Shown here in pieces: positions 1-40,978 of a stretch of 64,000 bases of DNA. A program made the translations under genes and the position numbers. The notes under the pieces are model-generated. The model was not told the origin of the DNA. It saw nothing but the letters and a program-made list of their open reading frames with translations, and ran no database searches. This DNA comes from Escherichia coli (GTDB lineage Bacteria; Pseudomonadota; Gammaproteobacteria; Enterobacterales; Enterobacteriaceae), in NCBI RefSeq assembly GCF_003991155.1, contig NZ_CP031293.1. One strand, written 5' to 3'. How positions within the stretch are numbered: the stretch's first letter is position 1; every line of letters starts with the position of its first letter.

Positions 1-414
1 TCGTCTTTTGGGATCAATGTCGTGATAAACGAGCGTACGATTTTTGAGCTTGACGCAGTGGCTGAGCTGGCGCAACAGTTTGGTGCTAGTGAATTGCTGT
101 TGTTGCCTCAGCAAGCAACTAATGCAGTCGCAAGTATGGACGAATTGGTCGGCCGAGAGCTTCAAAACTGGGTCTCTAGCTATAGAGGAAAGGTTCGACT
201 TGCAGTAAGTGAGGTGGGAGCGTCAGGGCTCCCCATATGTGACCCTCTTCCTAATGAAACAGGCCTTCAAGCCTACGCGCATATAGACGCTTCCGGGATA
301 TTGCGCACGAGTTCTTATTCAACCACAGGTATGGATATTGAAGAAACTGGTGTTATGTCCGCGCTTAAACGGCTTAGAAATACCTTAGAGATTAAACAAG
401 GGACACAATCATGA
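1..414 (+). CDS. Hypothetical protein, C-terminal part (5' end outside window); possibly a radical-SAM-type barrel C-terminus
   Basis: Frame 1 is open from nt 1 (SSFGINVVINERT...). The stop overlaps the next start (ATGA, 411-414). The pattern NxxxxxELxxVAELAQQFGASELLLLP...AYAHIDASGILR recalls the distal half of radical-SAM enzymes. This rests on memory only. Confidence 0.55.
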   Translation, partial: SSFGINVVINERTIFELDAVAELAQQFGASELLLLPQQATNAVASMDELVGRELQNWVSSYRGKVRLAVSEVGASGLPICDPLPNETGLQAYAHIDASGILRTSSYSTTGMDIEETGVMSALKRLRNTLEIKQGTQS

Positions 415-818
415 AAATTTGGAACGGATACGGATCTGAGCATTCGATGAACTTAGTTCTCATCGGAAAATTCAAGCAAGAGCAAGATGCAGTGAAGGTC
501 GAGAAGGATATTAAAACGCTCAGTACTCAGGCTGAGAAAGATGAATGTTACTCGATCCCTTTTGATGAGCCAGAGAATCAACGGTTTTCATATGAAATGC
601 TCTCATTACTATGCAGCCTAAAACTCCACACTTTAGGACCAACCGATCTTGGTCAATTGGTGTCAGATCATCATCTAGATCGCGAAGGCGATAGAATAAC
701 AATAACTACTGATGAGGCAGAGGTATCCGCGTTCGTGAAGCTGTTTGTCGAGGCTGGAGCAAAGGTCGAGATTTTCTCAGCGCATGACTATCCGTCCGAT
801 TCCAGCGATGCCAGTTGA
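411..818 (+). CDS. Hypothetical 135-aa protein, middle gene of the overlapped operon
   Basis: The ORF is translationally coupled on both sides (ATGA at 411-414; its TGA at 816-818 overlaps the TTG at 815). I recognise no motif. Confidence 0.6.
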   Translation: MKIWNGYGSEHSMNLVLIGKFKQEQDAVKVEKDIKTLSTQAEKDECYSIPFDEPENQRFSYEMLSLLCSLKLHTLGPTDLGQLVSDHHLDREGDRITITTDEAEVSAFVKLFVEAGAKVEIFSAHDYPSDSSDAS

Positions 819-3800
819 CAGAGGATGCATTGATGCCTGAAGTAAATTGGAAAGTATTCAACGAACTGCCCGGTGCAGCAGATGTGAACTTCGAAAACCT
901 TTGCCGCGCTCTGGTACGCCGACACTATGGTCGTTTCGGTCGCTTTAAGCAACTCGCAAATCAGCCTGGGGTGGAGTTTCACCTCGAGCTGACGGAGCCT
1001 TGTGATCTCGGTGCGCCACCAGGTTGGATTGGTTGGCAATGCAAGTGGTATGAACTGGTGAATGGACAAGATTTGGGAGCCTCCCGCCGCAACAAGATCA
1101 TCGAAGGTATCGAAAAGACGCGTAAGCATGTCCCTGGAGTGACCAATTGGAAGCTTTGGACTCATCACACGTTAACAAAAGGTGATCAAGAGTGGTTTTT
1201 CGCGCTAGAGCAAGACCGCTTCCCAGAATTGAAGTTAGAACTGCTCACAGCTACGGATATCGAAGATCTTTTGGTCGGACCGGGAGCGCTTTTACGAGAA
1301 ACCTACTTTGGTGAACTGGTTCTAACTCCAGAGCTAATTGCTGAGCAGTATAAGCTTGCAGTGGCCCCATTTAAGAACCGCTACCAGCCAGATGTTCATG
1401 TAGCGGTGGGGGCTGAGGAGAATATATTCAGGCATCTGTGCAGCCAAAACGCATGGGAATCTCTGGAAGAACTCTCAAACGCTTTAAAAAAGAATCATAC
1501 GAGCATTGCTTCGGTTACTGAGCAACTCAAAACTGAGCTCAGGGCTGAAGTTGAATTACTCCTGGCCCGGGTTATTGGGTTGACTGAGTTTATTGATGGC
1601 TTACACGCGGCGCTCGGCAAAGGTGACTTTAACTCTGTATATCAAGCGTTGGTTTCAAATCCGCGTCAGCCGGTACGTTATGACAGGCTACTTTCGAAAT
1701 TGCGTGGAGCGCGCTTTGACGGGGCTCCGTTAACCGCTAATTTGGTTGCAGATATCCACGCGGTTTCGTCAGTTCTCCGCAGTCTGGAGCAATCGATTAG
1801 TGCTCGGGCGGTTGCTGTTCTTGCGGCGGCGGGGGAAGGTAAGTCTGAACTTGCAGTCAAGGTAACACAGCCAGAAGGGGCGTTCCTAGGGGGAATCCTC
1901 CTATTAGGCAAGAATCTTCATTCAGGCCAGGGGCTTGATGATCTCGTATCTGCCTTCAAGATTTCTGGGAGACCAGCAGAAAGTTTTGACCGCCTGATTG
2001 AGGCCGTAGATGCGGCAGGCCAGCGTGCAGGTAAACGCATACCTATTGTTATTGACGGTCTGAATGAGGCGGAAGATCCGAGAAATTGGAAGGATGAATT
2101 ATCCCGAGTGGATGAGCTTCTAAAGAATTTTCCTTATGTCTTGTTAGTTGTCACTCTTCGCAATGAATTCGCCCAGATGTGTCTGCCTGAGGGGTTTCCC
2201 CAAGTTGAACATAATGGGTTTCAGGAAGATCCGAAGACAGCATTTGACAAGTATTTTGAGTACTACAAGATCGATGCTACTGATGCGGATCTACCAGTCG
2301 AACTCTTGCAGCACCCCTTAACACTGAGAATTTTTTGCGAAGTAGCAAATTCTCCTCGTCAGCATATTGTCGGAGTGGAAGCATTGCCCCGTTCGCTTGC
2401 AAGCCTGTTCGAAGCTCACTTTAACAAGGTTGCAGCACGAGTCGCTGAGCTTTCACCGACGATGCATCGCATTTATCAAGATGACGTTCAGGATGCACTA
2501 CTAACGATCGCGGGTCTTCTTTGGGATAACAATGCGAGAAGTGTGGATTTTCAGGCTACACGGATGGCAGTTCGGGATATGGGGTGGGACGACAGTATTA
2601 TTCGTGCACTGGAGTCTGAAGGCATTCTCGTTCGGACTATTTCTCCAGAAGGTAGGCAAGGAGTTGCGTTTGCATACGACCTAATGGCCGGACATATGAT
2701 GGCGCGCAACCTGCTTATGAAGCCTGAACTGGTGCAATGGCTACAAAGCGATGAAGGGAACGCAAAATTTAAATCTCATGGACCTGATTCGCATACCTTC
2801 GCTTATGACGTATTACGGGCTCTGGTTGATCTGTATCCGCAACACTCTGGTAGGCGGCAGCTTTGGCAAGACTTGTCGGATGATATACTCGTTATGAACG
2901 CTCTGCTATTGACGACGCAATCGGATCCAAGATATATCGGGCGGGCTACTGTTGAACGATTTGCTCAAGCTATGCAGGAGTCGAAGCGGTTTGCACAACT
3001 TGCCTTCGAGAGACTACGGAGCACTAGGGCTGCGCTGGCACATCCGTTTGATATGAGCTTTTTGCATGATGTGCTAATGGCTATGTCCAACACTCAGCGC
3101 GATCTTTTTTGGTCAGAGTGGATTCGTCAGAAATCTGAACAAGTTAAAGACGACTTAAAATTCTTGTCGACGAGATGGAAATCGGGTCATCTGGATGAGC
3201 GTGAACTTCGAAGAGTTCGCTGGGTAATGTGGACACTGACGACGACATCCAGAGCTTTGCGGGATATGGCTACCAAAGCCCTGTATGAATTTGCCATCAG
3301 GCGGCCAGAAGAGTTTTTCCGGTTAGCGACGGAGACAATTGTAGTTTCAGACCCATATGTCCCCGAGCGAGTGTTCGCCGCAGCCTACGGTGCAGTCCTG
3401 ACCACTTGGTCGGATATCGATGCGGTAGAGTTACATGATGCGTTGCCACGGTTCGCTCGTGAGATTTACCAAACCATGTTTGCACCTGGCGCTACAGCCC
3501 CTACCTGGCATGCATTACATCAGCAGTACTGTTTGGGAATCATTGCCATTGCGAGGATGGTCGATCCAAATTGTTTTTCAGAGGACGAAGCTGTTTATCT
3601 TCTTCCGCCATTTAGCCATCTGCCTAACGTATTTGAAAGCATTCAACCGTACGATCCAGAGATGATTGGGCGAGCGGAGAGCGCAGCGATTCAAATGGAC
3701 TTTGGTAACTATACGATTGGTGGACTTATTCCAGACAGAGCGAACTACGATGACAGTAATCCGGAGTACCAACAGGTGTTGCAGGCCATTGTTTCTCGAA

Positions 3801-4891
3801 TGCTGATGCTTGGTTATGACCCTGAGCAGTTTGAAGCTGTTGATCGGCAAATGTACTCCGGTTCTCGTATGGGAGATGACAAGCACAAAATCGATCGATA
3901 TGGCAAAAAGTACGGCTGGATAGCTTACTTCGAGATGTGGGGGATACGATACGCGCAGGGCCTCCTTTCCGAAGAACGCAGTGCTCGCCCATCAGATGCT
4001 GATATCGATCCAACGTTTCCGCAAAAAGTAGAGAGTATTAGTTTGTCACTCCCAGTCTTATTTAACGATCCGTCTGTGGATGATGGTGACTGGATCGTGG
4101 GAGGCCCGCTACCTGACTACCGTAGCATCCTTGAGATTACGGAGGTTGATGGTCTGACGGGGCCATGGATCCTACTTGACGGTTTTGTTGAGCAAAATGC
4201 TACCTCGGATGACCGACAGATTTTCACTTTCCTGCGAGGAGTATTCGTAGATAGCCAAGAAGTTGACAATCTATGTAGGTTGTTCATTGATCTTGAATAT
4301 CCTGGCAATAGCGCCATCCCTGATGCTCCTGGCTACTATTACACCTATGCGGGTGAGATGCCTTTCCCGACTATTCCGGGGCTGCTAGTCGCTAATGAAC
4401 AAGAGGATGATAGCGATGAAAATTTGGTGTTCGCAGAAAGATGGTCAGGCAATGGCGTTGCGGTAGATATCACAGTGCAGGACTACAACTGGGAGAGCTA
4501 CCATAGCGTGGAGAACCAAAGCAGCGGTGCGAGCCTGCCCTCAAAGCAACTTTGTGAGGCTTTGAATCTCAGATACTGTGCAAACAAATGGGATTTGCAT
4601 GATGCTGCAGGTGTAGCGTCACTTTACCGCAAAATTGACGAAAATGGTTCGGACGTCAGTGGCTCTGTCAGCTATCTACGTCGTGATCTACTTGACCGCT
4701 ATTTGATGCAATCCGGTAAGGTATTGGTATGGCTTATGTGGGGAGAGCGTGGTTTTCATTACCGGTCCAACAAGACACGCAATTTGCACAGGTATTACGT
4801 GAATCACCAACATATTCACAAGCGTATTCATATCCATCAGATAGCTTCGAGTACTAGTAACCCAAATATTGCGGATGGAGTCGCTATATGA
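815..4891 (+). CDS. Large STAND/NACHT-like P-loop NTPase with an N-terminal Mrr/PD-(D/E)xK-like domain and a ~900-aa C-terminal region (Avs/bNACHT-like)
   Basis: The ORF is 1,358 aa (TTG at 815, or ATG at 833). Walker A is AAAGEGKS (aa 337-344, nt 1823-1846). Walker B is IVIDGLNE (aa 411-418, nt 2045-2068), followed by LLVVTLRNE. The N-terminus reads FENLCRALV..GVEFHLEL..GWQCKWY (aa 26-79), like Mrr-type nuclease cores. Confidence 0.8.
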   Translation: MTEDALMPEVNWKVFNELPGAADVNFENLCRALVRRHYGRFGRFKQLANQPGVEFHLELTEPCDLGAPPGWIGWQCKWYELVNGQDLGASRRNKIIEGIEKTRKHVPGVTNWKLWTHHTLTKGDQEWFFALEQDRFPELKLELLTATDIEDLLVGPGALLRETYFGELVLTPELIAEQYKLAVAPFKNRYQPDVHVAVGAEENIFRHLCSQNAWESLEELSNALKKNHTSIASVTEQLKTELRAEVELLLARVIGLTEFIDGLHAALGKGDFNSVYQALVSNPRQPVRYDRLLSKLRGARFDGAPLTANLVADIHAVSSVLRSLEQSISARAVAVLAAAGEGKSELAVKVTQPEGAFLGGILLLGKNLHSGQGLDDLVSAFKISGRPAESFDRLIEAVDAAGQRAGKRIPIVIDGLNEAEDPRNWKDELSRVDELLKNFPYVLLVVTLRNEFAQMCLPEGFPQVEHNGFQEDPKTAFDKYFEYYKIDATDADLPVELLQHPLTLRIFCEVANSPRQHIVGVEALPRSLASLFEAHFNKVAARVAELSPTMHRIYQDDVQDALLTIAGLLWDNNARSVDFQATRMAVRDMGWDDSIIRALESEGILVRTISPEGRQGVAFAYDLMAGHMMARNLLMKPELVQWLQSDEGNAKFKSHGPDSHTFAYDVLRALVDLYPQHSGRRQLWQDLSDDILVMNALLLTTQSDPRYIGRATVERFAQAMQESKRFAQLAFERLRSTRAALAHPFDMSFLHDVLMAMSNTQRDLFWSEWIRQKSEQVKDDLKFLSTRWKSGHLDERELRRVRWVMWTLTTTSRALRDMATKALYEFAIRRPEEFFRLATETIVVSDPYVPERVFAAAYGAVLTTWSDIDAVELHDALPRFAREIYQTMFAPGATAPTWHALHQQYCLGIIAIARMVDPNCFSEDEAVYLLPPFSHLPNVFESIQPYDPEMIGRAESAAIQMDFGNYTIGGLIPDRANYDDSNPEYQQVLQAIVSRMLMLGYDPEQFEAVDRQMYSGSRMGDDKHKIDRYGKKYGWIAYFEMWGIRYAQGLLSEERSARPSDADIDPTFPQKVESISLSLPVLFNDPSVDDGDWIVGGPLPDYRSILEITEVDGLTGPWILLDGFVEQNATSDDRQIFTFLRGVFVDSQEVDNLCRLFIDLEYPGNSAIPDAPGYYYTYAGEMPFPTIPGLLVANEQEDDSDENLVFAERWSGNGVAVDITVQDYNWESYHSVENQSSGASLPSKQLCEALNLRYCANKWDLHDAAGVASLYRKIDENGSDVSGSVSYLRRDLLDRYLMQSGKVLVWLMWGERGFHYRSNKTRNLHRYYVNHQHIHKRIHIHQIASSTSNPNIADGVAI

Positions 4892-5052
4892 GTTACGACT
4901 TCAGAAATCTTTCATCCGCAAACTTTGAGGATCTTGTGCGGGATCTTATCGAAAAAGAAGAAGGGTTCGCTTCGAAGCATTCTCTGTGGGGGCTGATAAT
5001 GATATTGATGGCCGACACGCACATGCTGGAGGGAATGTCAGTTTATAGGTAA
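4888..5052 (+). pseudogene. Frameshifted and 3'-truncated remnant of a restriction-endonuclease-like (Mrr-type N-terminus) gene
   Basis: The ATG at 4888 overlaps the upstream TGA (ATGA). It reads MSYDFRNLSSANFEDLVRDLIEKEEG. The family-typical continuation RFEAFSVGADNDIDGRHA is found in another frame after ~4966, followed by TAG at 5046-5048. No further coding sequence follows. Confidence 0.6.
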
Positions 5053-6264
5053 AACCTTATGAAGGGGCGTCGTTTAGTATACTGATGGCTATTATGAAGT
5101 GTGAGTGGTTGTCTAAAGATAAGCTAGCCCTCACACGCTGTATCAAGCGACCTCTTGTTAGCTTACTCCAGCTAGCAAGAGTAAACTTTCCCCACTCATA
5201 GGGCTATGTTTGAAGTCCGAGTCGGAAATTGGGGGGCAGAAGACATAAAAGGTCTCCTTAAGAAGTCTTCTTGTCTGTACAAAAACTCTTATTTTGACAA
5301 AGAGCATTGTAGTTATTAACAGGCTGATTAATAAATTTAAAAATAAGTCGTCAGGAACACCAGATTAGCTACCCAAATTCTCATGCCGTGGAAGCGGAAG
5401 AAAAATACTCCCCTGAATATCTTCATATCGGATATACATAATAAGCTTGAGGTTGTATATTTGAAGAATTGAGTAGCCAGAGCCTTGTTGACATAAAGCG
5501 ACACGAACAACATGTTACTTAAAATATCACGAGTATATATTCAGACTTGTTTATGTTGCGACATGGATTCTACAGGCAGCTGGCTGAAACAGTGAGTCAG
5601 AAAAATTTACAGGAGCGCCATAGTCATTAATGGATATCCGTAATATGCTGATGCAAAAGGGTAAGGAGTTTGCCGGTAATCTGCGGTGTTAGACGACAAT
5701 TACAAAACGACCTTAGGCGTCAATTACCGCTGAAAAAAGTGACAGATCACTTTCTATAAAATGCTGCCGTATGACCGACAGATTTATTCCGCTTTATAGC
5801 CATGACTGTTCGGTGCTCACTTCGCTGCGCTCCGCCTCAGTCCTGCCTAAAAAGCGTTGCAGGTTAGTTTGTATCGGCCTAATGAAAGGCTGTTTTAGCG
5901 AAGCGTAAATGTGACATCTTATCTGGTCTAATCTCTTTGCGATAATTGACGCAAAAGCATGGGCTGTAATTGTCACGCAATACTGCGGCAAGTCTCATGA
6001 TGATGCCTCTGACAGGGATCTCCGTAGCCATTAACTGGTCGATTGGTAAGCTAAAACAAAAAAATTGAATTTGTCAAGACAGCCATAATGACTACCATTT
6101 TCGTCTCTGCTTTTCCATCCTGAAATTAATGGCTATCATATTCGCAATAGACAACATCATCTTACTTGCACTCAACTATAACTAATGCTGAGTGCAAGAA
6201 ACGGGGATTATATCCCCTATCAAGGACCTGTTGAAATATTAGTCTGGAATTTCGAGGCTGTAAT

Positions 6265-6789
6265 TTAAATTGCTCCATTTGCCTTAGCATCAAGAATGAA
6301 TTTTTCATACTCGCGTTCTGCAACAACAACAGGGACTGTTTTGCGATTATATAATTGCATTAATAACAATGTACGATGCCTTCCATCAGAAACACCAAAT
6401 TCACTGTTAGATGCCTCTGGATATTCAACATACCCTTTTGATATATATTTTTTGATTTTATGCCATCTACGCGGATCAATGCAGAATGCTCCATCTCCTA
6501 ATTTTTTAAGAAAGGCTAGCCCATCGACATATACAATCCTGGTAGGACAATGCCGATAGCGTACAGGAAGGGTAAAGATAATATTTTCAAAAACAGGGAA
6601 AGTAAGACCTGAATCATCTTTAGGTATTGACTCAAAGGAATCAAAAGGATATTTTGTCATGTAATCATTTAGTTTTTCAATATCCATATTGGAAAACCAC
6701 GATACTTCCGGGAGAAATTTTTTATCTCTTTCTCTAATTTCTTTGATCGAATCTCCAAATATATCATCTAACCTCCACCCCTCTTTCAT
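6265..6789 (-). CDS. Hypothetical protein with ParB/Srx-like DGRHR motif
   Basis: The ORF is 174 aa and AT-rich, with a GGAG-type RBS. The motif VSDGRHRTLLL near the C-terminus resembles the ParB/sulfiredoxin-fold signature. It is the last gene of the rhs cassette string. Confidence 0.6.
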   Translation of the reverse strand: MKEGWRLDDIFGDSIKEIRERDKKFLPEVSWFSNMDIEKLNDYMTKYPFDSFESIPKDDSGLTFPVFENIIFTLPVRYRHCPTRIVYVDGLAFLKKLGDGAFCIDPRRWHKIKKYISKGYVEYPEASNSEFGVSDGRHRTLLLMQLYNRKTVPVVVAEREYEKFILDAKANGAI

Positions 6790-6833
6790 TTATGCTCCTA
6801 AAATAATGTGATATTAAAAATTCTGTTAATAAG

Positions 6834-7349
6834 TCAAATTTTATGAATACTAATAAGGGGTTTGCACCACTCAACCGAGAGAATATCTTCCATTTTATAA
6901 AAAACGCCATAATCACTTTGATTATAATGCTCAATTTTATCAGCCATTTGTAATCTAATTTTGTCTTTGTAAATTCTACTTCGGATCAAACTGGCGAAAT
7001 TATATATATCAACCCTCAGATTGATAATATTATTTCTATCTGGGCGTCTTTCATGTAACATATCACGAAAAGAAACAAGTAACGTAATTAATTTTTTAGC
7101 CTCATTATTTTTAATATATCCTTTTTTAAAGATGCATAATATTAATTTTGAAATTAAGCTGATTTTTATTTGTAAATTATAGATAGCATTATCGTTTGTC
7201 AGGCAGGTTATGACTTCAATTACTTCACGTGAGCGAATATAATTGTCCAGTGCTTCCCATTCATCCATTCCTCGATGCATTGAAAGTTCCAATTGCCTTA
7301 AAAAAGCATATAACCCCAATAAGAAGTCGCTATTGCAGTATATTTTCAT
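6834..7349 (-). CDS. Putative immunity protein for the orphan Rhs C-terminal toxin 2
   Basis: The ORF is 171 aa. Its ATG overlaps the toxin stop (ATGA, 7346-7349). It is very AT-rich, which is typical for an rhs-CT/immunity pair. Confidence 0.6.
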   Translation of the reverse strand: MKIYCNSDFLLGLYAFLRQLELSMHRGMDEWEALDNYIRSREVIEVITCLTNDNAIYNLQIKISLISKLILCIFKKGYIKNNEAKKLITLLVSFRDMLHERRPDRNNIINLRVDIYNFASLIRSRIYKDKIRLQMADKIEHYNQSDYGVFYKMEDILSVEWCKPLISIHKI

Positions 7350-8737
7350 GAATCACATCCTTTAATAAAACTCATTATTCGTGACCAAAAAGAGTCTTTT
7401 TTGTATATAGGGTTTTTATCGTTTAATGGTAAAGGATCGTCTGTTGGTATAACGGCTGTATTTCTTGGCCCAACATTTGTTTTAGTAAGTGAATCTTTGG
7501 AAGCATCAAACTCTACATAAGAACCATTCTTCCATGCCCCTGTTTCTGCACCTGCCGTTTTAGGATCTCCAAATGGCTCCACCTCAACGTGTACACCAAC
7601 AGGATTGCCTCTGGCAGGGTTGATAGACCCATCCTTGCTAATTCCATCAATACCCTCTGTTGAAGTATGATGTCTAACTCTAACAGTATCGTCACCAGTT
7701 AACCCTAACGGATCAATAATTTTTAGCGGATTAAATACATATCCATACAGGCAATCCCCACCTCTCAGCCCCATCGGATCAGCACACAGATACTGCCCCG
7801 TATCGCAATCATAATACCTGAATCGGTTATAGTACAGGCCTGACTCAACATCCTCGTACTGCCCCGGAAAACGTAACCGGCATGTGGGCGCATCTTCTTT
7901 ACTGATGCCTTCCTCACGCCCCCAGAGCTGCTGCTTGCCTTTCCAGACTATCAGACCCTCTTCGGTCAGCAGTTCTTGTACGCGGCCAGTTGTGTCTGTT
8001 ACCGCATAATGCAGTTGCCCCTTTTCATAACGCGCAAACGGCGTGAAATCTCCCGGCTCGTATATCCAGCGGATGGCGTTTTCATCTTCCGGTTTGCCGT
8101 CAGCGCCAACCGGAATTTCCGCCGTCAACTGGTCGCCGTTCCAGTGAAAATCCATGCCGCGTTTGTCGCGGCTGGTACAGCGCTTGCTGATGCGCCTGCC
8201 GAACGGGTCATACTTATATTCCCAGCGTTCGCCCTCCGGTGTTTCCAGTCCGGTCAACTGGCTGCGTGCATCCCATTTATAACGCCATTCCAGTGGGCGA
8301 TAACCCCCTTTATCCACCAGTTTCTGTACCAGCCTGCCGTTAACATCATATTTCCAGGTGATGTTGTGCGCATTCACCACCCGGACAAATCTCCCGTCTT
8401 CCCCTTTTCCGGTGTCCGGGTTGATGCGATGCGTCGAGTGCCGCCAGCCTTCATGTTCCCGCGATACCACACGACCATGCTGCTGTTGCTGGTGCGTCTC
8501 GCTTTCCAGTACGTTATTCACCCTGATCTGGCGACGGGTAATGTTCAGGTTTTTATCGTAAGTGAACAGCTCCTCGCACAGCGGAAACTGGCTGGAATCA
8601 CCCGTCCAGGTGGCGTGGCTTATCTGGTCGTTTGCCGTGATGGTGTTGAACATGGAGCCGCGCAGCGAGTCGGCGATTGCGGTGAGGTTATACGCTTTGT
8701 CGTAGCTTCGCTGCGTCGGGAGGTTTCCATGCCGCAC
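7346..8737 (-). CDS. Orphan Rhs core fragment (YD repeats) fused to a ~116-aa C-terminal toxin domain
   Basis: YD-repeat text is present (YDKAYNLTAIAD, WRYKWDARSQLTGLETPEGERWEYKYDPFGRR). The core-end motif is RFRYYDCDTGQYLCADPMGLRGG...NPLKIIDPLGL, followed by a unique tail. Rhs-like sequence continues upstream (8738-8848) in a different frame with no start codon, so the cassette is 5'-truncated and frameshifted. Confidence 0.8.
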   Translation of the reverse strand: MRHGNLPTQRSYDKAYNLTAIADSLRGSMFNTITANDQISHATWTGDSSQFPLCEELFTYDKNLNITRRQIRVNNVLESETHQQQQHGRVVSREHEGWRHSTHRINPDTGKGEDGRFVRVVNAHNITWKYDVNGRLVQKLVDKGGYRPLEWRYKWDARSQLTGLETPEGERWEYKYDPFGRRISKRCTSRDKRGMDFHWNGDQLTAEIPVGADGKPEDENAIRWIYEPGDFTPFARYEKGQLHYAVTDTTGRVQELLTEEGLIVWKGKQQLWGREEGISKEDAPTCRLRFPGQYEDVESGLYYNRFRYYDCDTGQYLCADPMGLRGGDCLYGYVFNPLKIIDPLGLTGDDTVRVRHHTSTEGIDGISKDGSINPARGNPVGVHVEVEPFGDPKTAGAETGAWKNGSYVEFDASKDSLTKTNVGPRNTAVIPTDDPLPLNDKNPIYKKDSFWSRIMSFIKGCDS

Positions 8738-8850
8738 AGGTCGTGCTCAAATGTCAGCGGGGCATGGTCCGCTATTCGCCATGACGTAAGATGCCCCATC
8801 AGGTCGCGGGTGAAGCGTTCTGTGATACCCTCAGCCTGTAATTTTACAGG

Positions 8851-9285
8851 TTAAATGGGGAATTTTTCTTCAATGAGCTTCAAGCCAAGTAATGCCATAT
8901 CATGAATATCTTCATCATGCGATTGAGCCGAAATTTTCAACCCGTTTACCATTCTTTTATCTGGGAAAGACATTGTTAATATAGTACACCAAAGCCTAAC
9001 GCTTTTTATTGTGTTAGGATTTTCGAGTATGTTAACGATATTTATAACAACATCATTAAAATCACACTTATAGAGAAAATCCTCAACAATTTGATATACT
9101 CCAAGACCATCACCCTCACCAAAAGATCGCAAAAATAAAGGTATTGCATCTTTATCGGGATGGGAAAGAAAGTAAATTCGTACCTCATCGTATTTATCTA
9201 TAAGATCCTGAGTAATATCACAATCCGCGGGCATTGGTTGATGTAGTGACAGGAACTCTAATGCTTCTTTTTTATTCATATTCAT
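8851..9285 (-). CDS. Putative immunity protein for Rhs C-terminal toxin 1
   Basis: The ORF starts at MNMNKKEAL, and its ATG overlaps the toxin TGA (ATGA, 9282-9285). It is AT-rich, ~144 aa, and lies immediately downstream of the toxin. Confidence 0.6.
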   Translation of the reverse strand: MNMNKKEALEFLSLHQPMPADCDITQDLIDKYDEVRIYFLSHPDKDAIPLFLRSFGEGDGLGVYQIVEDFLYKCDFNDVVINIVNILENPNTIKSVRLWCTILTMSFPDKRMVNGLKISAQSHDEDIHDMALLGLKLIEEKFPI

Positions 9286-26513: not shown

Positions 26514-26707
26514 CCAACGCCATTCATGGCCATATCAATGATTTTCTGGTGCGTACCGGGTTGAGAAGCGGTGTAAGTGAACTGCAGTTGCCATGTTTTA
26601 CGGCAATGAGAGCAGAGATAGCGCTGATGTCCGGCGGTGCTTTTGCCGTTACGCACCACTCCGTCAGTAGCTGAACAGGAGGGACAGCTGATAGAAACAG
26701 AAGCCAC
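26432..26707 (-). CDS. insA: IS1 InsA
   Basis: [51 protein letters not shown]... Confidence 0.95.
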
Positions 26708-26762
26708 TGGAGCACCTCAAAAACACCATCATACACTAAATCAGTAAGTTGGCAGCATCACC

Positions 26763-26771
26763 TGTTCTCTA
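26763..26771. repeat. IS1 target-site duplication, right copy (TGTTCTCTA)
   Basis: It is identical to 25986-25994. Confidence 0.9.
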
Positions 26772-26863
26772 TTAATTTTTCTCATTAGCCGAGTAAGTCA
26801 GCCATTCTTTTTCCTCGCTTTTTTTTATAGTCATATCGTCAAAAAAATCCAGGCGAGGTCTTT

Positions 26864-27148
26864 ATGCAACAAGAAGCGTTAGGAATGGTAGAAACCAAAG
26901 GCTTAACTGCCGCCATAGAGGCCGCAGATGCCATGGTGAAGTCGGCAAATGTTTTGCTGGTCGGCTACGAAAAAATAGGTTCCGGGCTGGTGACCGTCAT
27001 CGTTCGTGGTGATGTCGGGGCGGTAAAAGCGGCAACAGACGCGGGTGCCGCAGCTGCGCGTAACGTCGGCGAAGTAAAAGCCGTACACGTTATTCCCCGC
27101 CCACATACCGATGTCGAAAAAATCTTACCAAAGGGAATTAACCCATGA
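26864..27148 (+). CDS. pduA: BMC-H shell protein PduA
   Basis: [30 protein letters not shown]... is a BMC domain, and it is the first gene of the operon. Confidence 0.95.
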
Positions 27149-27957
27149 GCAGCAATGAACTGGTCGAACAGATCATGGCGCAGGTCATCGCTCGCGTAGC
27201 GACGCCAGAGCATGAGGTTCTCCCGAAAACCACTCATCAAATACGAGAGACGGCTATGGCAGAAAAAAGCTGCACGTTAACAGAATTTGTTGGCACCGCT
27301 ATTGGCGACACTGTAGGTCTGGTCATTGCGAACGTTGATAGCGCCCTGTTGGACGCGATGAAACTTGAAAAACGCTATCGTTCCATTGGCATTCTGGGGG
27401 CGCGTATTGGCGCAGGGCCACACATTATGGCCGCTGATGAAGCGGTAAAAGCCACCAACACTGAAGTTATTAGCATTGAACTTCCTCGCGATACTAAAGG
27501 CGGTGCCGGACACGGCTCATTGATCCTCTTAGGTGGCAACGATGTTTCCGACGTGAAACGCGGTATTGAAGTTGCCCTGAAAGAACTCGATCGGACCTTT
27601 GGTGATGTCTATGCCAACGAAGCCGGGCATCTTGAACTGCAATACACCGCCCGCGCCAGCTATGCACTGGAAAAAGCGTTTGGCGCTCCACTGGGACGGG
27701 CTTGCGGCGTTATTGTCGGCGCTCCGGCTGCGGTGGGTGTTCTGATGGCCGACACCGCGCTGAAGTCCGCCAATGTGGATGTCGTGGCATACAGCTCCCC
27801 CGCTCAAGGCACCAGCTACAGCAACGAAGTCATTCTGATTATCTCGGGTGACTCCGGCGCAGTCCGCCAGGCGGTCATCTCCGCACGCGCAATCGGTAAA
27901 ACCGTGCTTTCGACTCTCGGCGATACACCGAAAAACGATCGCCCTTCCTACATCTGA
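27145..27957 (+). CDS. pduB: BMC-T shell protein PduB (internal start for PduB' at 27256)
   Basis: The ORF is 270 aa. A second in-frame start gives [14 protein letters not shown] at codon 38, as in the known PduB/PduB' pair. Confidence 0.9.
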
Positions 27958-27975
27958 ATTCTCTGAGGCAGATTT

Positions 27976-29640
27976 ATGAGATCGAAAAGATTTGAAGCAC
28001 TGGCAAAACGCCCGGTCAACCAGGACGGTTTCGTTAAAGAGTGGATTGAAGAAGGCTTCATTGCGATGGAAAGCCCGAACGATCCTAAACCGTCAATCAA
28101 AATTGTTAACGGCGTCGTTACCGAACTGGATGGAAAACCCGCCAGTCAGTTTGACCTGATCGACCACTTTATCGCCCGCTACGGCATCAATCTCGCGCGC
28201 GCAGAAGAAGTCATCGCGATGGATTCGGTAAAACTTGCCAATATGTTGTGCGATCCAAATGTCAAACGTAGCGATATCGTTCCCCTTACCACAGCAATGA
28301 CGCCTGCAAAAATCGTCGAAGTGGTTTCGCAGATGAACGTGGTAGAGATGATGATGGCGATGCAGAAAATGCGCGCCCGTCGAACACCATCACAACAGGC
28401 TCACGTCACCAACATCAAAGATAACCCGGTACAAATTGCCGCCGACGCAGCTGAAGGCGCATGGCGCGGGTTTGATGAACAGGAAACCACTGTTGCCGTT
28501 GCTCGCTATGCACCGTTCAACGCCATCGCCCTGCTGGTCGGCTCACAGGTGGGACGTCCGGGCGTCTTGACCCAGTGTTCACTGGAAGAAGCCACCGAAC
28601 TGAAACTCGGTATGTTAGGCCACACCTGTTACGCCGAAACAATTTCTGTCTATGGTACAGAACCTGTTTTCACCGATGGCGATGATACCCCGTGGTCAAA
28701 AGGATTTCTCGCGTCATCCTATGCTTCTCGCGGCTTAAAAATGCGCTTTACTTCCGGCTCCGGCTCTGAAGTACAGATGGGTTACGCGGAAGGCAAATCA
28801 ATGCTTTATCTCGAGGCTCGATGCATTTACATCACCAAAGCCGCAGGCGTTCAGGGTCTGCAGAATGGTTCGGTAAGCTGCATCGGTGTTCCATCAGCTG
28901 TGCCATCAGGCATCCGCGCAGTATTAGCGGAAAACTTAATTTGCTCATCGCTGGATCTGGAATGCGCCTCCAGTAATGACCAGACCTTTACCCACTCGGA
29001 TATGCGCCGTACCGCACGTTTCCTGATGCAATTTCTGCCGGGTACCGACTTTATCTCGTCCGGTTTTTCCGCTGTGCCGAACTACGACAACATGTTTGCT
29101 GGTTCAAACGAAGATGCTGAAGACTTCGATGATTACAACGTCATTCAGCGTGACCTGAAGGTTGATGGCGGGCTGCGACCAGTACGCGAAGAAGATGTTA
29201 TCGCAATCCGCAATAAAGCCGCTCGCGCTTTACAGGCTGTCTTTGCCGGTATGGGACTACCGCCAATTACCGATGAAGAAGTCGAAGCGGCAACCTATGC
29301 CCACGGTTCGAAAGATATGCCTGAGCGCAATATTGTGGAAGACATCAAGTTCGCCCAGGAGATTATCAATAAAAACCGTAACAGCCTGGAAGTGGTGAAA
29401 GCCCTGGCGCAAGGCGGTTTTACCGATGTCGCCCAGGACATGCTCAACATGCAAAAAGCAAAACTGACCGGCGATTATCTCCATACCTCAGCCATCATCG
29501 TCGATGACGGACAAGTGCTCTCAGCGGTCAATGACATCAATGATTACGCCGGACCAGCTACAGGTTACCGCCTGCAAGGGGAACGCTGGGAAGAGATCAA
29601 AAATATTCCCGGTGCACTTGATCCCAACGAAATTGACTAA
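27976..29640 (+). CDS. pduC: B12-dependent diol dehydratase large subunit
   Basis: The ORF is 554 aa (MRSKRFEALAKRPVNQDGFVKEWIEEGFIAMESPNDPKPSIKI...). Confidence 0.95.
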   Translation: MRSKRFEALAKRPVNQDGFVKEWIEEGFIAMESPNDPKPSIKIVNGVVTELDGKPASQFDLIDHFIARYGINLARAEEVIAMDSVKLANMLCDPNVKRSDIVPLTTAMTPAKIVEVVSQMNVVEMMMAMQKMRARRTPSQQAHVTNIKDNPVQIAADAAEGAWRGFDEQETTVAVARYAPFNAIALLVGSQVGRPGVLTQCSLEEATELKLGMLGHTCYAETISVYGTEPVFTDGDDTPWSKGFLASSYASRGLKMRFTSGSGSEVQMGYAEGKSMLYLEARCIYITKAAGVQGLQNGSVSCIGVPSAVPSGIRAVLAENLICSSLDLECASSNDQTFTHSDMRRTARFLMQFLPGTDFISSGFSAVPNYDNMFAGSNEDAEDFDDYNVIQRDLKVDGGLRPVREEDVIAIRNKAARALQAVFAGMGLPPITDEEVEAATYAHGSKDMPERNIVEDIKFAQEIINKNRNSLEVVKALAQGGFTDVAQDMLNMQKAKLTGDYLHTSAIIVDDGQVLSAVNDINDYAGPATGYRLQGERWEEIKNIPGALDPNEID

Positions 29641-29649
29641 GGGTGAGAA

Positions 29650-30318
29650 ATGGAAATTAACGAAAAATTACTGCGTCAGATTATCGAAGGCGTGCTGGCA
29701 GAAATGCAAACCAGCGACAAGTCCGTTTCATTTCGTGCACCTGTCTCTGCAACTGTCTCTTCAGTGCCAGATACCGGAAATTTTCTGACCGAAATTGGCG
29801 AAGCCCAACAAGGCACTCAGCAAGATGAAGTCATTATTGCTGTAGGCCCGGCGTTCGGCCTGGCGCAAACCGTCAATATCATCGGTATTCCGCATAAAAA
29901 CATTTTGCGCGAAGTGATTGCCGGTATCGAAGAAGAAGGCATTAAAGCCCGTGTGATTCGCTGCTTTAAATCGTCCGATGTCGCATTCGTAGCAGTCGAA
30001 GGCGATCGTCTTAGTGGTTCAGGTATTGCTATCGGTATTCAGTCGAAAGGCACAACGGTTATCCACCAGCAGGGACTTCCCCCCTTGTCTAACCTGGAAC
30101 TTTTCCCACAAGCGCCTTTGTTGACGCTGGATACTTATCGTCAGATTGGCAAAAACGCCGCGCGTTATGCGAAGCGCGAGTCTCCACAACCGGTGCCGAC
30201 CCTCAACGATCAAATGGCGCGACCGAAATACCAGGCCAAATCTGCCATTTTGCATATTAAAGAGACGAAGTACGTGGTCACTGGCAAAAAACCGCAAGAA
30301 CTGCGCGTGACGTTTTAA
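29650..30318 (+). CDS. pduD: Diol dehydratase medium subunit
   Basis: The ORF is 222 aa with the N-terminal [19 protein letters not shown] encapsulation-peptide-like helix. Confidence 0.9.
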
Positions 30319-30332
30319 CAAAGGAAACCTTC

Positions 30333-30851
30333 ATGAATACCGATGCAATTGAGTCGATGGTCAGGGACGTGTTGAACCGCATGAACAGTTTACAGGGTGC
30401 AGCTCCTGTTTCTGCGGTCCCCAGCGCGTCAATACAGAGCGCCAAAGTGACGGATTACCCGCTGGCAAATAAACATCCGGAATGGGTTAAAACAGCAACC
30501 AATAAAACGCTCGACGATTTCACTCTGGAAAATGTGCTCAGCGATAACGTCACCGCCCAGGATATGCGCATTACCCCTGAAACATTGCGTATTCAGGCCG
30601 CGATTGCCAGAGATGCTGGTCGCGATCGCCTGGCGATGAATTTCGAACGCGCCGCTGAGCTTACCTCAGTACCGGATGATCGCATCCTCGAAATCTACAA
30701 TGCGTTACGCCCTTATCGTTCGACTAAGCAAGAACTTATTGCCATTGCTGACGATCTTGAACGGCGTTATCAGGCCAAAATTTGTGCTGCATTTGTCCGT
30801 GAAGCTGCGGAACTTTATGTCGAGCGCAAAAAACTGAAAGGCGACGATTAA
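30333..30851 (+). CDS. pduE: Diol dehydratase small subunit
   Basis: The ORF is 172 aa and lies in the expected operon position. Confidence 0.9.
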   Translation: MNTDAIESMVRDVLNRMNSLQGAAPVSAVPSASIQSAKVTDYPLANKHPEWVKTATNKTLDDFTLENVLSDNVTAQDMRITPETLRIQAAIARDAGRDRLAMNFERAAELTSVPDDRILEIYNALRPYRSTKQELIAIADDLERRYQAKICAAFVREAAELYVERKKLKGDD

Positions 30852-30896
30852 GGACGAACTATGCGATATGACGATTAAGGACGAACTATGCGATAT
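30843..30896 (+). repeat. Perfect tandem duplication, 2 x 27 bp (GACGATTAAGGACGAACTATGCGATAT), across the pduE stop / pduG start
   Basis: Copy 1 is 30843-30869 and copy 2 is 30870-30896. I verified them base by base. Confidence 0.95.
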
Positions 30897-32720
30897 ATAG
30901 CAGGCATTGATATCGGCAACTCATCAACAGAGGTTGCGCTGGCAACGCTCAGTGCAACTGGAGAGTTGTCGTTCGTGAGTAGCGCCCTGGCGGAAACCAC
31001 CGGAATTAAAGGTACGTTGCGTAACGTCCATGGTATTCAGGAGGCGCTCGCACAGGCAACGAAAAAAGTCGGCATCAATGTTAGCGATATTTCGCTTATT
31101 CGTATCAACGAAGCAACTCCGGTCATTGGTGATGTGGCGATGGAAACCATCACTGAAACTATCATCACCGAATCAACCATGATCGGTCACAACCCGAAAA
31201 CGCCGGGCGGAGTGGGGCTGGGCGTAGGGCTCACCATCACTCCGCAAGAGTTATTAACATGCCCGGCGGACACACCCTACATTCTGGTGGTGTCATCGGC
31301 ATTTGATTTTGCCGATATCGCAACAATGATAAACGCCTCCGTACGCGCCGGATATCAGCTGACTGGCGTTATTCTGCAACGCGACGATGGCGTACTGGTC
31401 AATAACCGCCTGGAAATTCCTCTCCCTATTGTTGATGAAGTCCTCTACATCGATCGTATTCCGCTCGGCATGCTGGCTGCGATTGAAGTTGCCGTTCCCG
31501 GGAAAGTTATCGAAACCCTGTCTAACCCGTATGGGATTGCCACCGTTTTCGCCCTCAATGCTGAAGAGACTAAAAATATTGTTCCTGTCGCGCGGGCGCT
31601 AATCGGCAACCGTTCAGCAGTGGTAGTGAAAACGCCTTCTGGCGACGTTAAAGCCCGTTCGATACCCGCCGGAAATATCGAACTGCTTTCTGCCGGGCGC
31701 ACAACGCGGGTTGATGTAGCTGCTGGTGCCGATGCCATTATGAAAGCGGTCGGTGAGTGCCCAAAACTGGAAAACGTGACGGGAGAACCTGGCTCCAACA
31801 TCGGCGGAATGCTGGAACATGTTCGCCAGACCATGGCTGAACTGACCAACAAACCCAGCCACGAAATTTTTATTCAGGATTTGCTGGCGATAGATACCTC
31901 TGTCCCCGTCAACGTAACCGGTGGTCTGGCAGGTGAATTTTCACTGGAACAGGCTGTGGGTATTGCCTCTATGGTGAAATCCGACCGTCTGCAAATGGCG
32001 ATGATCGCCAGTGAAATTAAGCAAAAACTGCATGTTGATGTTCAGGTCGGAGGCGCAGAAGCAGAAGCCGCCATTCAAGGGGCCTTGACTACCCCTGGAA
32101 CCACACGTCCACTGGCAATTCTGGACTTAGGTGCAGGCTCTACCGATGCCTCCATCATCAATCAGAAAGGGGAAATTGTTGCCACTCACCTTGCGGGTGC
32201 GGGCGACATGGTAACGATGATTATCGTTCGTGAGCTGGGCTTAAATGATCGTTATCTGGCAGAAGAAATCAAAAAGTACCCGTTGGCAAAAGTAGAAAGC
32301 CTGTTCCACTTACGCCATGAAGATGGCAGCGTTCAGTTCTTCCCTACTCCCCTATCCCCCTATGTATTTGCCCGCGTCTGTGTAGTGAAACCCGACGAAC
32401 TGGTGCCTATTCCCGGTGATTTGACGCTGGAAAAAGTACGCGCTGTTCGTCGCAGTGCGAAAGAGCGTGTCTTCGTAACCAATGCCCTGCGCGCGCTACG
32501 TCAGGTAAGCCCTGCCGGAAATATTCGCGACATTCCGTTCGTCGTTCTGGTGGGCGGTTCTTCGCTGGATTTCGAAGTACCACAGTTAGTCACCGATGCA
32601 TTGGCGCATTATCGACTGGTCGCCGGACGGGGGAATATCCGTGGTAGCGAAGGTCCGCGCAACGCGGTAGCTACTGGGCTACTCATCGCCTGGCACAAGG
32701 AGTCGATTCATGGAAAGTAA
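30888..32720 (+). CDS. pduG: Diol dehydratase reactivase large subunit
   Basis: The ORF is 610 aa (MRYIAGIDIGNSSTEVALA...). Confidence 0.9.
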   Translation: MRYIAGIDIGNSSTEVALATLSATGELSFVSSALAETTGIKGTLRNVHGIQEALAQATKKVGINVSDISLIRINEATPVIGDVAMETITETIITESTMIGHNPKTPGGVGLGVGLTITPQELLTCPADTPYILVVSSAFDFADIATMINASVRAGYQLTGVILQRDDGVLVNNRLEIPLPIVDEVLYIDRIPLGMLAAIEVAVPGKVIETLSNPYGIATVFALNAEETKNIVPVARALIGNRSAVVVKTPSGDVKARSIPAGNIELLSAGRTTRVDVAAGADAIMKAVGECPKLENVTGEPGSNIGGMLEHVRQTMAELTNKPSHEIFIQDLLAIDTSVPVNVTGGLAGEFSLEQAVGIASMVKSDRLQMAMIASEIKQKLHVDVQVGGAEAEAAIQGALTTPGTTRPLAILDLGAGSTDASIINQKGEIVATHLAGAGDMVTMIIVRELGLNDRYLAEEIKKYPLAKVESLFHLRHEDGSVQFFPTPLSPYVFARVCVVKPDELVPIPGDLTLEKVRAVRRSAKERVFVTNALRALRQVSPAGNIRDIPFVVLVGGSSLDFEVPQLVTDALAHYRLVAGRGNIRGSEGPRNAVATGLLIAWHKESIHGK

Positions 32721-33060
32721 AGAGCGTGCACCAGCCATCGTCGTCATGGAGATCGGTAACTGCATCACTATATGGGATGAGGTGCTTCTTGGCATTGAAG
32801 AGGAAGGTATTCCCTTTCGCATTCAACACATTCCGTCAGGTGAAGTTATCGATAGCGCCTGGCTGGCTGCTCGTCAATCTCCCCTGTTGGTTGGCATTGC
32901 CTGCGATCAGGAAAAACTGATTGTGCATTACAAAAACTTACCACCATCAGCGCCACTGTTTACGCTGATGTATCAACAAGATAACCATGCCCGGCGCAGC
33001 ATCGGCACTAACGCTGCCCGCCTGGTAAAAGGAATTCCCTTCCGGGAATTCCACTCATAA
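32710..33060 (+). CDS. pduH: Diol dehydratase reactivase small subunit
   Basis: The ORF is 116 aa, overlaps the pduG end, and is in the expected operon position. Confidence 0.85.
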
Positions 33061-33079
33061 TCCACAGGAGAAACGCAGT

Positions 33080-33355
33080 ATGAACAACGCACTAGGACTG
33101 GTTGAAACAAAAGGGTTAGTTGGCGCAATTGAAGCTGCAGATGCCATGGTTAAATCCGCCAACGTGCAGCTGGTTGGCTATGAAAAGATTGGTTCGGGTC
33201 TGATTACGGTGATGGTCCGCGGTGATGTTGGTGCAGTAAAGGCCGCCGTGGATGCGGGGAGCGCTGCGGCAAGCGCAGTTGGCGAAGTGAAATCCTGCCA
33301 TGTCATCCCGCGCCCACACAGTGATGTTGAGGCTATTTTACCTAAATCGGCATAA
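33080..33355 (+). CDS. pduJ: BMC-H shell protein PduJ
   Basis: [29 protein letters not shown]... Confidence 0.95.
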
Positions 33356-33378
33356 CCCCATTTGCTAAGGAGCACAGC

Positions 33379-33801
33379 GTGAAGCAATCACTGGGATTAC
33401 TTGAAGTCAGTGGTCTGGCACTCGCCATCAGTTGCGCAGATGCTATGGCAAAAGCCGCGTCCATCACGCTGGTTGGCCTTGAGAAGACCAATGGCTCAGG
33501 CTGGACGCTCATCAAAATCACCGGTGACGTCGCCTCGGTTAATGCGGCGATCGCGACGGGAGCCAGTTTCGCCGGACAGCGAAATGGCCTCGTCGCACAC
33601 AAAGTGATTGCCCGTCCGGGAGACGGCATTCTGCCCCACACAACTAAAGCATTGACTGTGACGGTTGAAACAAGCGAAACACCAGCAACAACCGTCATCT
33701 CAGAGATTATCAGTTGTAATTTGTGTCTTGACCCGGCATGTCAGCGGCAAAAAGGTGAGCCCCGCTCACTTTGCCTGCACGCCAATAAGCGAGGGGAGTA
33801 A
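33379..33801 (+). CDS. pduK: BMC shell protein PduK
   Basis: It has a GTG start, a BMC domain and a Cys-rich C-terminal tail (CNLCLDPACQRQKGEPRSLC). Confidence 0.9.
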   Translation: MKQSLGLLEVSGLALAISCADAMAKAASITLVGLEKTNGSGWTLIKITGDVASVNAAIATGASFAGQRNGLVAHKVIARPGDGILPHTTKALTVTVETSETPATTVISEIISCNLCLDPACQRQKGEPRSLCLHANKRGE

Positions 33802-33803
33802 CA

Positions 33804-34436
33804 GTGGATAAACAAACCTTGCAGGAAACAGTGAGCCAGATTCTGGATGAGATGCGCGAGCGCCCTATCCCTCTGGGTGTTTCCAGTCGTCATATTCATC
33901 TTTCAACAGCGGATTATTTGCGTCTTTTTCCTGAACAACCGATTAGCGAGAAAAAGCCGTTAATGCAACCTGGCCAATTCGCTGCTGAACAGGTTGTTAC
34001 GCTGGAGGGACCAAAAGGTAAATTGCACAACGTTCGCTTGTTGGGGCCGCTACGCAATGCAAGCCAGGTGGAAATTTCCCGGACGGACGCCAGAACGTTA
34101 GGGATCACCGCCCCGCTACGCATGTCAGGCGATCTCAGCGGCACTCCAGGGATTCGTTTGGTAAGCCCATTTGCGGAACTGGAGATCACATCTGGCGTCA
34201 TTGTCGCGCAACGGCATATTCATATGTCTCCGCTGGATGCCCTGATTTATGGCGTTACGCATGGCGATAAAGTGGCGGTTGCCATTGAAGGTGATGAGCG
34301 ACGACTGATATTCGAAAACGTCGCTGTTCGCGTCTCTCCGGATATGCGTCTTGAAATGCATATTGATACCGATGAAGCCAACGCCGCAGGGGCTGATAGC
34401 CCTGACGTTTTTGCCACACTGGTGTCAGTGCCATGA
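33804..34436 (+). CDS. pduL: Phosphotransacylase PduL
   Basis: The ORF is 210 aa with a GTG start and the text PLGVSSRHIHLS...AQRHIHMSP. Confidence 0.9.
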   Translation: MDKQTLQETVSQILDEMRERPIPLGVSSRHIHLSTADYLRLFPEQPISEKKPLMQPGQFAAEQVVTLEGPKGKLHNVRLLGPLRNASQVEISRTDARTLGITAPLRMSGDLSGTPGIRLVSPFAELEITSGVIVAQRHIHMSPLDALIYGVTHGDKVAVAIEGDERRLIFENVAVRVSPDMRLEMHIDTDEANAAGADSPDVFATLVSVP

Positions 34437-34924: not shown

Positions 34925-34927
34925 CCT

Positions 34928-35203: not shown

Positions 35204-35214
35204 GGAGCTGAAAG

Positions 35215-37604: not shown

Positions 37605-37614
37605 AGAAACGGAA

Positions 37615-40067: not shown

Positions 40068-40069
40068 CG

Positions 40070-40974: not shown

Positions 40975-40978
40975 CGTT

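Follow-up and report, generated by a model that had tools for sequence, protein, structure and literature searches.

The stretch of DNA analysed here (the window) comprises 64,000 nucleotides of the Escherichia coli contig NZ_CP031293.1 (assembly GCF_003991155.1). Three genes on the plus strand at its left end, avap1, avap2, and avs2, very probably form the E. coli orthologue of the KpAvs2 anti-phage operon avap1-avap2-avs2. That operon of Klebsiella pneumoniae S_15PV encodes Avap1 (radical SAM), Avap2 (PF19902/DUF6375), and KpAvs2; Béchon et al. (2024, Nat Commun 15:9860; PMC11564622) gave it its name, cloned it, and tested it, and in a full-text literature search for DUF6375 theirs was the sole relevant paper. 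The operon is a real defence operon, and it is already known. An earlier note on the window had proposed a defence operon in which an Avs-type NTPase has two obligate partners, and had considered it undescribed unless the gene set mapped onto a named system of the same composition. The operon and its obligate partners were borne out by the synteny described below; the novelty was not, as the gene set is that of the named and tested KpAvs2 operon.

KpAvs2, with a length of 1352 aa (residues 1066-1352 are those removed in the published deletion), combines a C-terminal sensor with an Mrr nuclease and a STAND NTPase, and K71A or K337A abolishes defence (PMC11564622). Read from ATG 833, the window Avs2 also has 1352 aa, with K71 in GWQCK and K337 in GEGKS; it thus has the length and the mutant positions of KpAvs2. 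Its 90% cluster also holds 1352-aa proteins of K. pneumoniae, which align to it gap-free at 95-96% identity. Avap1 and Avap2 are about 94% and 97-98% identical to their Klebsiella copies, respectively. The operon of Nitrospirae bacterium JdFR-85, which appears as a KpAvs2-operon homologue in Fig. 1B of PMC11564622, was fetched independently here (L062) and is homologous along its length to the window proteins. According to the same paper, Avap2 accompanies about 5% of Avs2 homologues, in most cases together with Avap1. The assignment is based on identity, architecture, motifs, and strict synteny; phenotype, triggers, DNA degradation, and Avap2 binding are taken from the literature on an orthologue that is 95% identical. 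Defence, abortive infection, DNA smearing, and co-immunoprecipitation of Avap2 with Avs2 were all demonstrated for the KpAvs2 operon (PMC11564622).

The open reading frames (ORFs) and overlaps listed in the earlier note (ATGA at 411-414, TTG 815 over TGA 816-818, and ATGA at 4888-4891) are all present in the sequence. Translational coupling, which the note had read from them, is more than a chance impression: the start of avap2 overlaps the stop of avap1 as ATGA at 411-414, and of 78 related loci, 54 have a 4-nt overlap of the ATGA type at this junction. The TTG overlap, in contrast, is not favoured as the start of avs2. The ORF from TTG 815, which overlaps the stop codon TGA 816-818, would encode 1358 aa. 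The real start is likely ATG 833, because RefSeq places it there, a Shine-Dalgarno sequence (AGAGGA) is present at 820-825, and the resulting distance of 14 nt to the end of avap2 is the most frequent spacing (+14 nt) in the relatives. The in-frame TTG remains the less likely alternative.

The motifs AAAGEGKS, IVIDGLNE, LLVVTLRNE, and GVEFH...GWQCKWY lie in Avs2 where they had been reported. The N-terminal region had been read as an Mrr/PD-(D/E)xK nuclease with a QxK variant, and a profile of 19 orthologous N-termini indeed matched the EcAvs4 nuclease (PDB 8dgf) with E=1.5e-5, GVE/GIE and GWQCK/GWQSK being aligned. The catalytic residues are E48 and Q69-x-K71 (codon of K71 at 1043-1045); among the Avs2 orthologues E48, Q69, and C70 are invariant, and K71 is present in the majority, with R in some. 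The central module contains the Walker A motif AAAGEGKS (codon of K337 at 1841-1843), the Walker B motif IVIDGLNE (2045-2068), and the sensor-1-like strand LLVVTLRNE; both Walker motifs align with those of EcAvs2 in PDB 9o4e. The earlier description of this module as a NACHT/STAND NTPase was partly right. The STAND part and the Avs2 family were recovered by PADLOC (model PDLC02164, E=7.7e-116 over aa 8-969) and by 9o4e (E=2.1e-36, aa 331-1043, covering NTPase and sensor). Pfam, however, returned no family at E<=1 for the 1358-aa ORF; NACHT (PF05729) was not matched, and the label "NACHT domain-containing protein" is present in only some RefSeq records of Avs2. The C-terminal region, for which a sensor role had been suspected, is homologous to the EcAvs2 sensor. 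By orthology with KpAvs2, aa 1066-1352 would be the phage-protein recognition pocket. In most close orthologues this segment has the highest density of substitutions (up to 8-10%, versus 3-5% elsewhere); in the closest K. pneumoniae copies the substitutions are spread about evenly along Avs2.

As an independent check of co-conservation, an alignment of Avap2 homologues was scanned against one genome per GTDB species; 109 loci were confirmed, and 80 were kept. These span Gamma-, Beta-, Alpha-, and Deltaproteobacteria, Cyanobacteria, Actinobacteria, Firmicutes, Planctomycetes, Verrucomicrobia, Nitrospirae, Acidobacteria, and Methanothrix. An Avap1 homologue was located directly upstream of Avap2 in 76/76 testable loci, and an Avs2 with the same kind of nuclease head directly downstream in 74/74. 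Wherever the contig extends far enough, the three genes sit side by side on one strand without a change of order, and the co-occurrence and gene order that the note had wanted to see checked are therefore conserved across phyla. A complete Avap1-Avap2-Avs2 trio was also found in metagenome-assembled genomes of Methanotrichaceae / Methanothrix (L076 and L077), with Avap2 48-49% identical to the E. coli protein. Unless these contigs were mis-binned, the trio on methanogen-binned contigs implies transfer between domains.

Motif conservation and segment identities were computed on 62 complete loci. The median identities to the window proteins are 58% for the Avs2 nuclease, 52% for Avap1, 51% for the Avs2 NTPase, 47% for Avap2, 43% for Avs2 aa 561-1065, 35% for aa 1066-1352, and 33% for the helical linker (aa 131-300). 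By this measure, constraint on Avap1 and Avap2 equals that on the catalytic modules, and it is weakest in the two segments published as the phage-recognition pocket and as the Avap2-binding bundle.

The 135-aa product of avap2, in which the earlier note had recognised no motif, is in fact a full-length match to PF19902 (DUF6375), and RefSeq labels it "DUF6375 family protein"; it is nevertheless true that PADLOC, Pfam, and NCBIfam provide no system name for it. The motifs K-I-W-x-G-Y-G-S-E-H-S-M-N-L-V, TDE, and S-A-H-D-Y-P are conserved across phyla; W4, Y7, E10, H11, D101, E102, H125, and D126 are invariant. At 50% identity the small DUF6375 family forms 295 clusters, and nearly all members are stand-alone proteins of 120-145 aa. 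A search of the 295 representative clusters for Rosetta-stone fusions yielded none that were informative, and no DUF6375 gene outside an Avs2 context was seen among the loci examined here. The predicted structure is a ferredoxin-like alpha+beta fold with generic structural matches only. Our guess is that Avap2 is a subunit which stabilises or locks the nuclease-proximal region.

Avap1 is encoded by the first gene of the operon. The earlier note had recognised that the unit is cut by the window start: avap1 begins 504 nt outside. The upstream sequence was taken from E. coli strain WW2 (locus L001; window position = L001 position - 12000), in which the full gene is located at L001:11497-12414 and encodes 305 aa. 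The faint resemblance to radical-SAM proteins noted for the visible part proved genuine on the full gene, which was taken from genomes that are 100% identical: Avap1 matched PF04055 with E=2.9e-15, RefSeq labels the full-length product "radical SAM protein", and the cluster motif is CDLRCAHC (CxxxCxxC). We argue that Avap1 is a predicted active enzyme, because the radical-SAM motifs CxxxCxxC, GGGEP, and SxDG are kept at >=90% in the 62 loci. Avap1 contains one cluster motif, and the cysteines of SPASM or twitch domains are absent. Its scores are below the curated cut-offs for viperin, MoaA, SPASM maturases, and all other NCBIfam radical-SAM families; the viperin model NF038283 gave 58.5 bits against a cut-off of 180, with only the core (aa 40-180) covered. 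The AlphaFold2 model has a mean pLDDT (predicted local distance difference test) of 61 and an unreliable C-terminal third. In a Foldseek search with this model, SkfB, SuiB, viperin, anSME, PqqE, and MoaA were matched at TM (template modelling) scores of about 0.4-0.5; these matches confirm only the superfamily branch (SkfB/SuiB/viperin/anSME/MoaA). Published work on Avap1 did not detect ddh-nucleotides (ddhNTP), described a predicted structure without an NTP pocket, and observed no defence with Avap1 alone (PMC11564622).

What Avap1 acts on is a matter of guesswork; it may modify a protein or small-molecule partner and thereby widen the range of phages covered. A more specific version, which we regard as speculative and rather unlikely, is that Avap1 is a protein- or peptide-directed radical-SAM enzyme, not a viperin-like one, which modifies the Avs2-Avap2 complex post-translationally and tunes either the phages sensed or the firing of the nuclease. 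Candidate targets would be the N-terminal peptide K-I-W-x-G-Y-G-S-E-H-S-M-N of Avap2, which is invariant across phyla and probably flexible, or the poorly conserved helical linker of Avs2. Such a modification would explain why Avap1 is needed against T2 and not against SECphi18. If true, no earlier case would be known in which a radical-SAM modification regulates an NLR-like immune receptor.

The mechanism proposed for the window operon follows that of KpAvs2. Avs2 would be a cytoplasmic pattern-recognition receptor, binding a phage protein directly through its distal C-terminal sensor; depending on the phage, this protein would be the large subunit of terminase or one of the small proteins Ksap1 and Ksap2. 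The triggers reported for KpAvs2 are Ksap1 (Dhillonvirus), Ksap2 (Stephanstirmvirinae), and the large terminase of Bas22, as well as many other terminases in co-expression; KpAvs2 lacking 1066-1352 bound neither Ksap1, Ksap2, nor terminase and provided no defence (PMC11564622). Trigger binding together with ATP at the STAND module (K337) would lead to oligomerisation of Avs2; the EcAvs2 oligomer is a C4 tetramer. Oligomerisation would bring the N-terminal Mrr-type nuclease domains (K71) together, and these would degrade DNA non-specifically, so that the infection is aborted at the cell's expense and growth stops before phage release. Avap2 would sit on the helical bundle between nuclease and NTPase before and after infection, and would be needed for full defence. 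This bundle is the reported Avap2-binding site in KpAvs2, according to AlphaFold-Multimer and co-immunoprecipitation; Avap2 was required against SECphi18, and its gene could not be deleted, which suggests toxicity in the absence of Avap2 (PMC11564622). Defence against only some phages would depend on Avap1, and T2 is the case that was tested; Avap1 was dispensable against SECphi18 and contributed against T2 (PMC11564622).

Several observations weigh against equating the window operon with the KpAvs2 operon. The NCBIfam equivalog for Avs2 (NF041813) scored 276.4 bits against a cut-off of 1000 and aligned only over aa 310-943; this score, far under the cut-off, therefore indicates a divergent Avs2 subfamily with a different N-terminus. 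The operon promoter lies outside the window, and no promoter-like site rises above chance. Species, length, residue numbers, and membership of the cluster are the grounds on which we infer identity to the tested S_15PV allele. The set of phage proteins recognised could be altered by the 4-8% of residues substituted in Avs2 (as many as 8-10% in aa 1066-1352 when some close orthologues are the reference). Finally, activity of the E. coli copy with the same trigger range as KpAvs2 would be an extrapolation from the Klebsiella orthologue.

Even with these points, other readings of the three genes fare much worse. A multi-gene defence system distinct from all named ones would fit the fact that Pfam, NCBIfam, and PADLOC give the partner genes no system-level name and that RefSeq describes them only as "radical SAM protein" and "DUF6375 family protein". 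We consider it extremely improbable, since the composition, order, and domain architecture were already published, named, and tested (PMC11564622), the window proteins are 94-98% identical to Klebsiella orthologues, and the operon of JdFR-85, a genome shown in that paper, is homologous to them along its length. Hardly any more credence can be given to an ordinary single-gene Avs2 beside two unrelated neighbours, for example a small biosynthetic pair or one resembling those for ribosomally synthesised and post-translationally modified peptides (RiPPs). Most Avs2 proteins do act alone, and peptide maturases (SkfB, SuiB, and PqqE) are among the closest relatives of Avap1 with a solved structure. 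However, no testable locus in any phylum breaks the ordered co-occurrence (76/76 and 74/74), and the genes usually overlap by 4 nt; the DUF6375 family is small, its members almost always stand alone, and none was seen here in another context; and published data include the co-immunoprecipitation of Avap2 with Avs2 and weak defence by KpAvs2 alone (PMC11564622). Later Avs2 preprints, found in a literature search for subsequent work on Avap1, Avap2, and PDC-S73, use KpAvs2; the accessory genes are not addressed in them.

The operon had also been described as a four-gene unit; it comprises three genes, and the fourth ORF is a decayed fragment of a PDC-S73-type gene. This 54-aa ORF (4888-5052) starts in the ATGA 4888-4891 at the avs2 stop. 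In other E. coli, genes annotated as restriction endonuclease or nSTAND3 NTPase have a 5' end that is matched by the sequence between 4888 and about 5266. The stub has a 1-nt deletion after codon ~26 and two more 1-nt deletions, and homology is lost near 5266; only the first ~25 codons of the ORF are authentic. Against PDC-S73 only residues 1-27 match, as opposed to the full-length nuclease plus nSTAND3 protein (~750 aa) that defines the type. An intact 762-aa gene with the same ATGA overlap follows avs2 in E. coli MLI107 (L082:8009-10297), whose operon copy is 90-95% identical; its product matches PDC-S73 (E=5e-146), nSTAND3 (E=7.5e-49), and also Mrr_cat. This arrangement and the 5' stub retained in the window speak for a four-gene system, crippled here by the decay of its Mrr+nSTAND3 (PDC-S73-like) gene. 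In contrast, no homologue of the 762-aa gene was found within 7 kb of the operon in the 80 other loci, and in E. coli MB06233 (L083:3752-8286) a gene of this type shares an overlap with the stop of the gene for a PDC-S06 AAA_13 ATPase. The PDC-S73-type STAND nuclease is therefore joined behind two different upstream defence genes. Furthermore, the published three-gene operon is sufficient for defence (PMC11564622), and 23 of the 25 E. coli carriers possess the decayed stub, yet have intact avap1, avap2, and avs2. A four-gene system is thus very unlikely. The 54-aa ORF was rejected as a fourth component: as a frameshifted stub of a gene that has no homologue within 7 kb of the operon in the 80 other loci and has another partner in MB06233, it is what decay has left of a neighbouring defence gene and does not belong to the Avs2 system. 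A literature search retrieved no paper mentioning PDC-S73.

The coordinates of the features are summarized in Table 1.

Table 1. Features of the avap1-avap2-avs2 operon and of the surrounding island (window positions).
Feature	Position	Strand	Basis
avap1, 3' part (last 137 codons + stop)	1..414	+	full gene taken from identical E. coli genomes
avap2, 135 aa, DUF6375	411..818	+	Pfam PF19902 E=8.8e-60, full length
avs2 (probable KpAvs2 orthologue), 1352 aa	833..4891	+	PADLOC Avs2 PDLC02164, PDB 9o4e, K. pneumoniae orthologues
Mrr-like PD-(D/E)xK nuclease effector, aa 1-130	833..1222	+	N-termini profile vs EcAvs4 nuclease
Helical linker, nuclease to NTPase, aa 131-300	1223..1732	+	orthology with KpAvs2
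STAND NTPase module, aa 301-560	1733..2512	+	motifs read directly, aligned to 9o4e
C-terminal TPR-like/beta-rich sensor, aa 561-1352	2513..4888	+	homology to EcAvs2 sensor
Pseudogene stub, Mrr_cat + nSTAND3 NTPase gene (PADLOC PDC-S73 type)	4888..5266	+	comparison with intact MLI107 gene
Degenerate ~95-nt repeat	6006..6101	+	81-88% identical to L001:11236-11330
tRNA-Asn (asnT), island integration site	17266..17341	-	ARAGORN
tRNA-Asn	19090..19165	+	ARAGORN

The operon had been placed in a tRNA-Asn island beside toxin/immunity cassettes, and both the tRNA genes and the adjoining Rhs cassettes were found. In strain WW2 the island position at asnT could be established. An exact 16-nt repeat, TGGCTCCTCTGACTGG, is present at L001:29266-29281 (the 3' end of asnT, window 17266-17281) and at L001:11231-11246, 250 nt upstream of avap1, and homology to K-12-like genomes stops exactly at L001:11246. 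An 18-kb island at asnT is thereby delimited, with the operon at its integrase-distal end; Rhs toxin/immunity cassettes, an IS3 element, and integrases occupy the stretch from there to the tRNA genes. The ~95-nt repeat copy at L001:11236-11330, just upstream of avap1, begins inside the 16-nt repeat of the tRNA-Asn 3' end; a weaker third copy lies at window 5291-5348. The copy at 6006..6101 probably marks the inner boundary of the Avs2-carrying module in the asnT island. Because the ~95-nt repeat brackets this 6.8-kb module, the arrangement suggests that it and the Rhs/integrase module were added to the island separately, one after the other.

In the Rhs cassettes, C-terminal toxin fragments are stacked, with small putative immunity genes after each of them (window 6265-9303, minus strand, and L001:18265-21770). 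An orphan Rhs tip, which carries a pseudogene annotation, and a 463-aa Rhs-core ORF (7346-8737) belong to the stack, which adjoins the IS3 element and a DUF2169 gene. Farther along, between asnT/yeeO and the his operon, the window contains a complete pdu (propanediol-utilisation) microcompartment operon with pocR/pduF and adjacent cobUST (window ~26600-41200; L084:9614-24172). The pdu operon is accessory in E. coli and unrelated to the Avs2 operon.

The operon region was found in 25 of 5426 complete genomes, which are its E. coli carriers, and is chromosomal in each of them; in 23 complete genomes the copy of window bases 1-5400 is 100% identical. Its GC content (47-50%) does not depart from the E. 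coli background. Upstream of avap1, L001 contains ~700 nt of non-coding DNA, followed by the core gene yeeN. A scan of the operon and its flanks for promoters and terminators returned nothing beyond shuffled expectation, and a search of L001:10700-19000 against Rfam gave no match. In one of the 25 carriers, E. coli EC0585 (NZ_CP195049.1 2982053-2989411), the operon-region match is split by IS100 (IS21-family istA/istB); this looks like a natural knockout.

What seemed novel from the window by itself is a published, experimentally validated system, and annotation tools still leave its two accessory genes unnamed. So far KpAvs2 has been studied only by heterologous expression in E. coli; native E. 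coli carriers of the operon are now identified. The strict three-gene synteny is documented from Proteobacteria to an archaeon, and the invariant motifs of Avap1 and Avap2 offer targets for mutational work on the accessory roles.

Among known systems, the prokaryotic viperins (pVips) resemble Avap1 in being radical-SAM proteins, and Avap1 is encoded in a defence operon. Viperin models are among its best matches over the core barrel only; Avap1 was not assigned to the pVips, its score being under the NF038283 cut-off. EcAvs4/SeAvs3 (PDB 8dgf) share with the window Avs2 an N-terminal Mrr-like nuclease with a (D/E)...QxK core. Their effector is activated by oligomerisation and degrades DNA, as proposed for the window Avs2; however, they have other sensor families and triggers (portal for Avs4) and are single-gene systems without radical-SAM/DUF6375 partners.

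In EcAvs2 (AVAST type 2; PDB 9o4e; Gao et al. 2022; bioRxiv 10.64898/2026.04.30.721860) the STAND NTPase and the C-terminal sensor are homologous to those of the window Avs2. EcAvs2 recognises terminase, as does KpAvs2, and both are activated by Ksap1. EcAvs2 works alone and has a different N-terminal effector that does not look enzymatic, whereas the window Avs2 has an Mrr nuclease and a helical bundle and, by orthology with KpAvs2, would need Avap2. The KpAvs2 operon itself differs from the window in its host, which is E. coli here, and in that the window operon resides in an island integrated at asnT, with a decayed PDC-S73-type gene attached downstream. Avs2 differs by ~53-63 substitutions, 12-23 of them in aa 1066-1352, and the trigger spectrum could differ slightly. 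The two have the same three genes in the same order and with the same domains, an Avs2 of 1352 aa with K71 and K337, and 94-98% identity between the window proteins and the Klebsiella orthologues.

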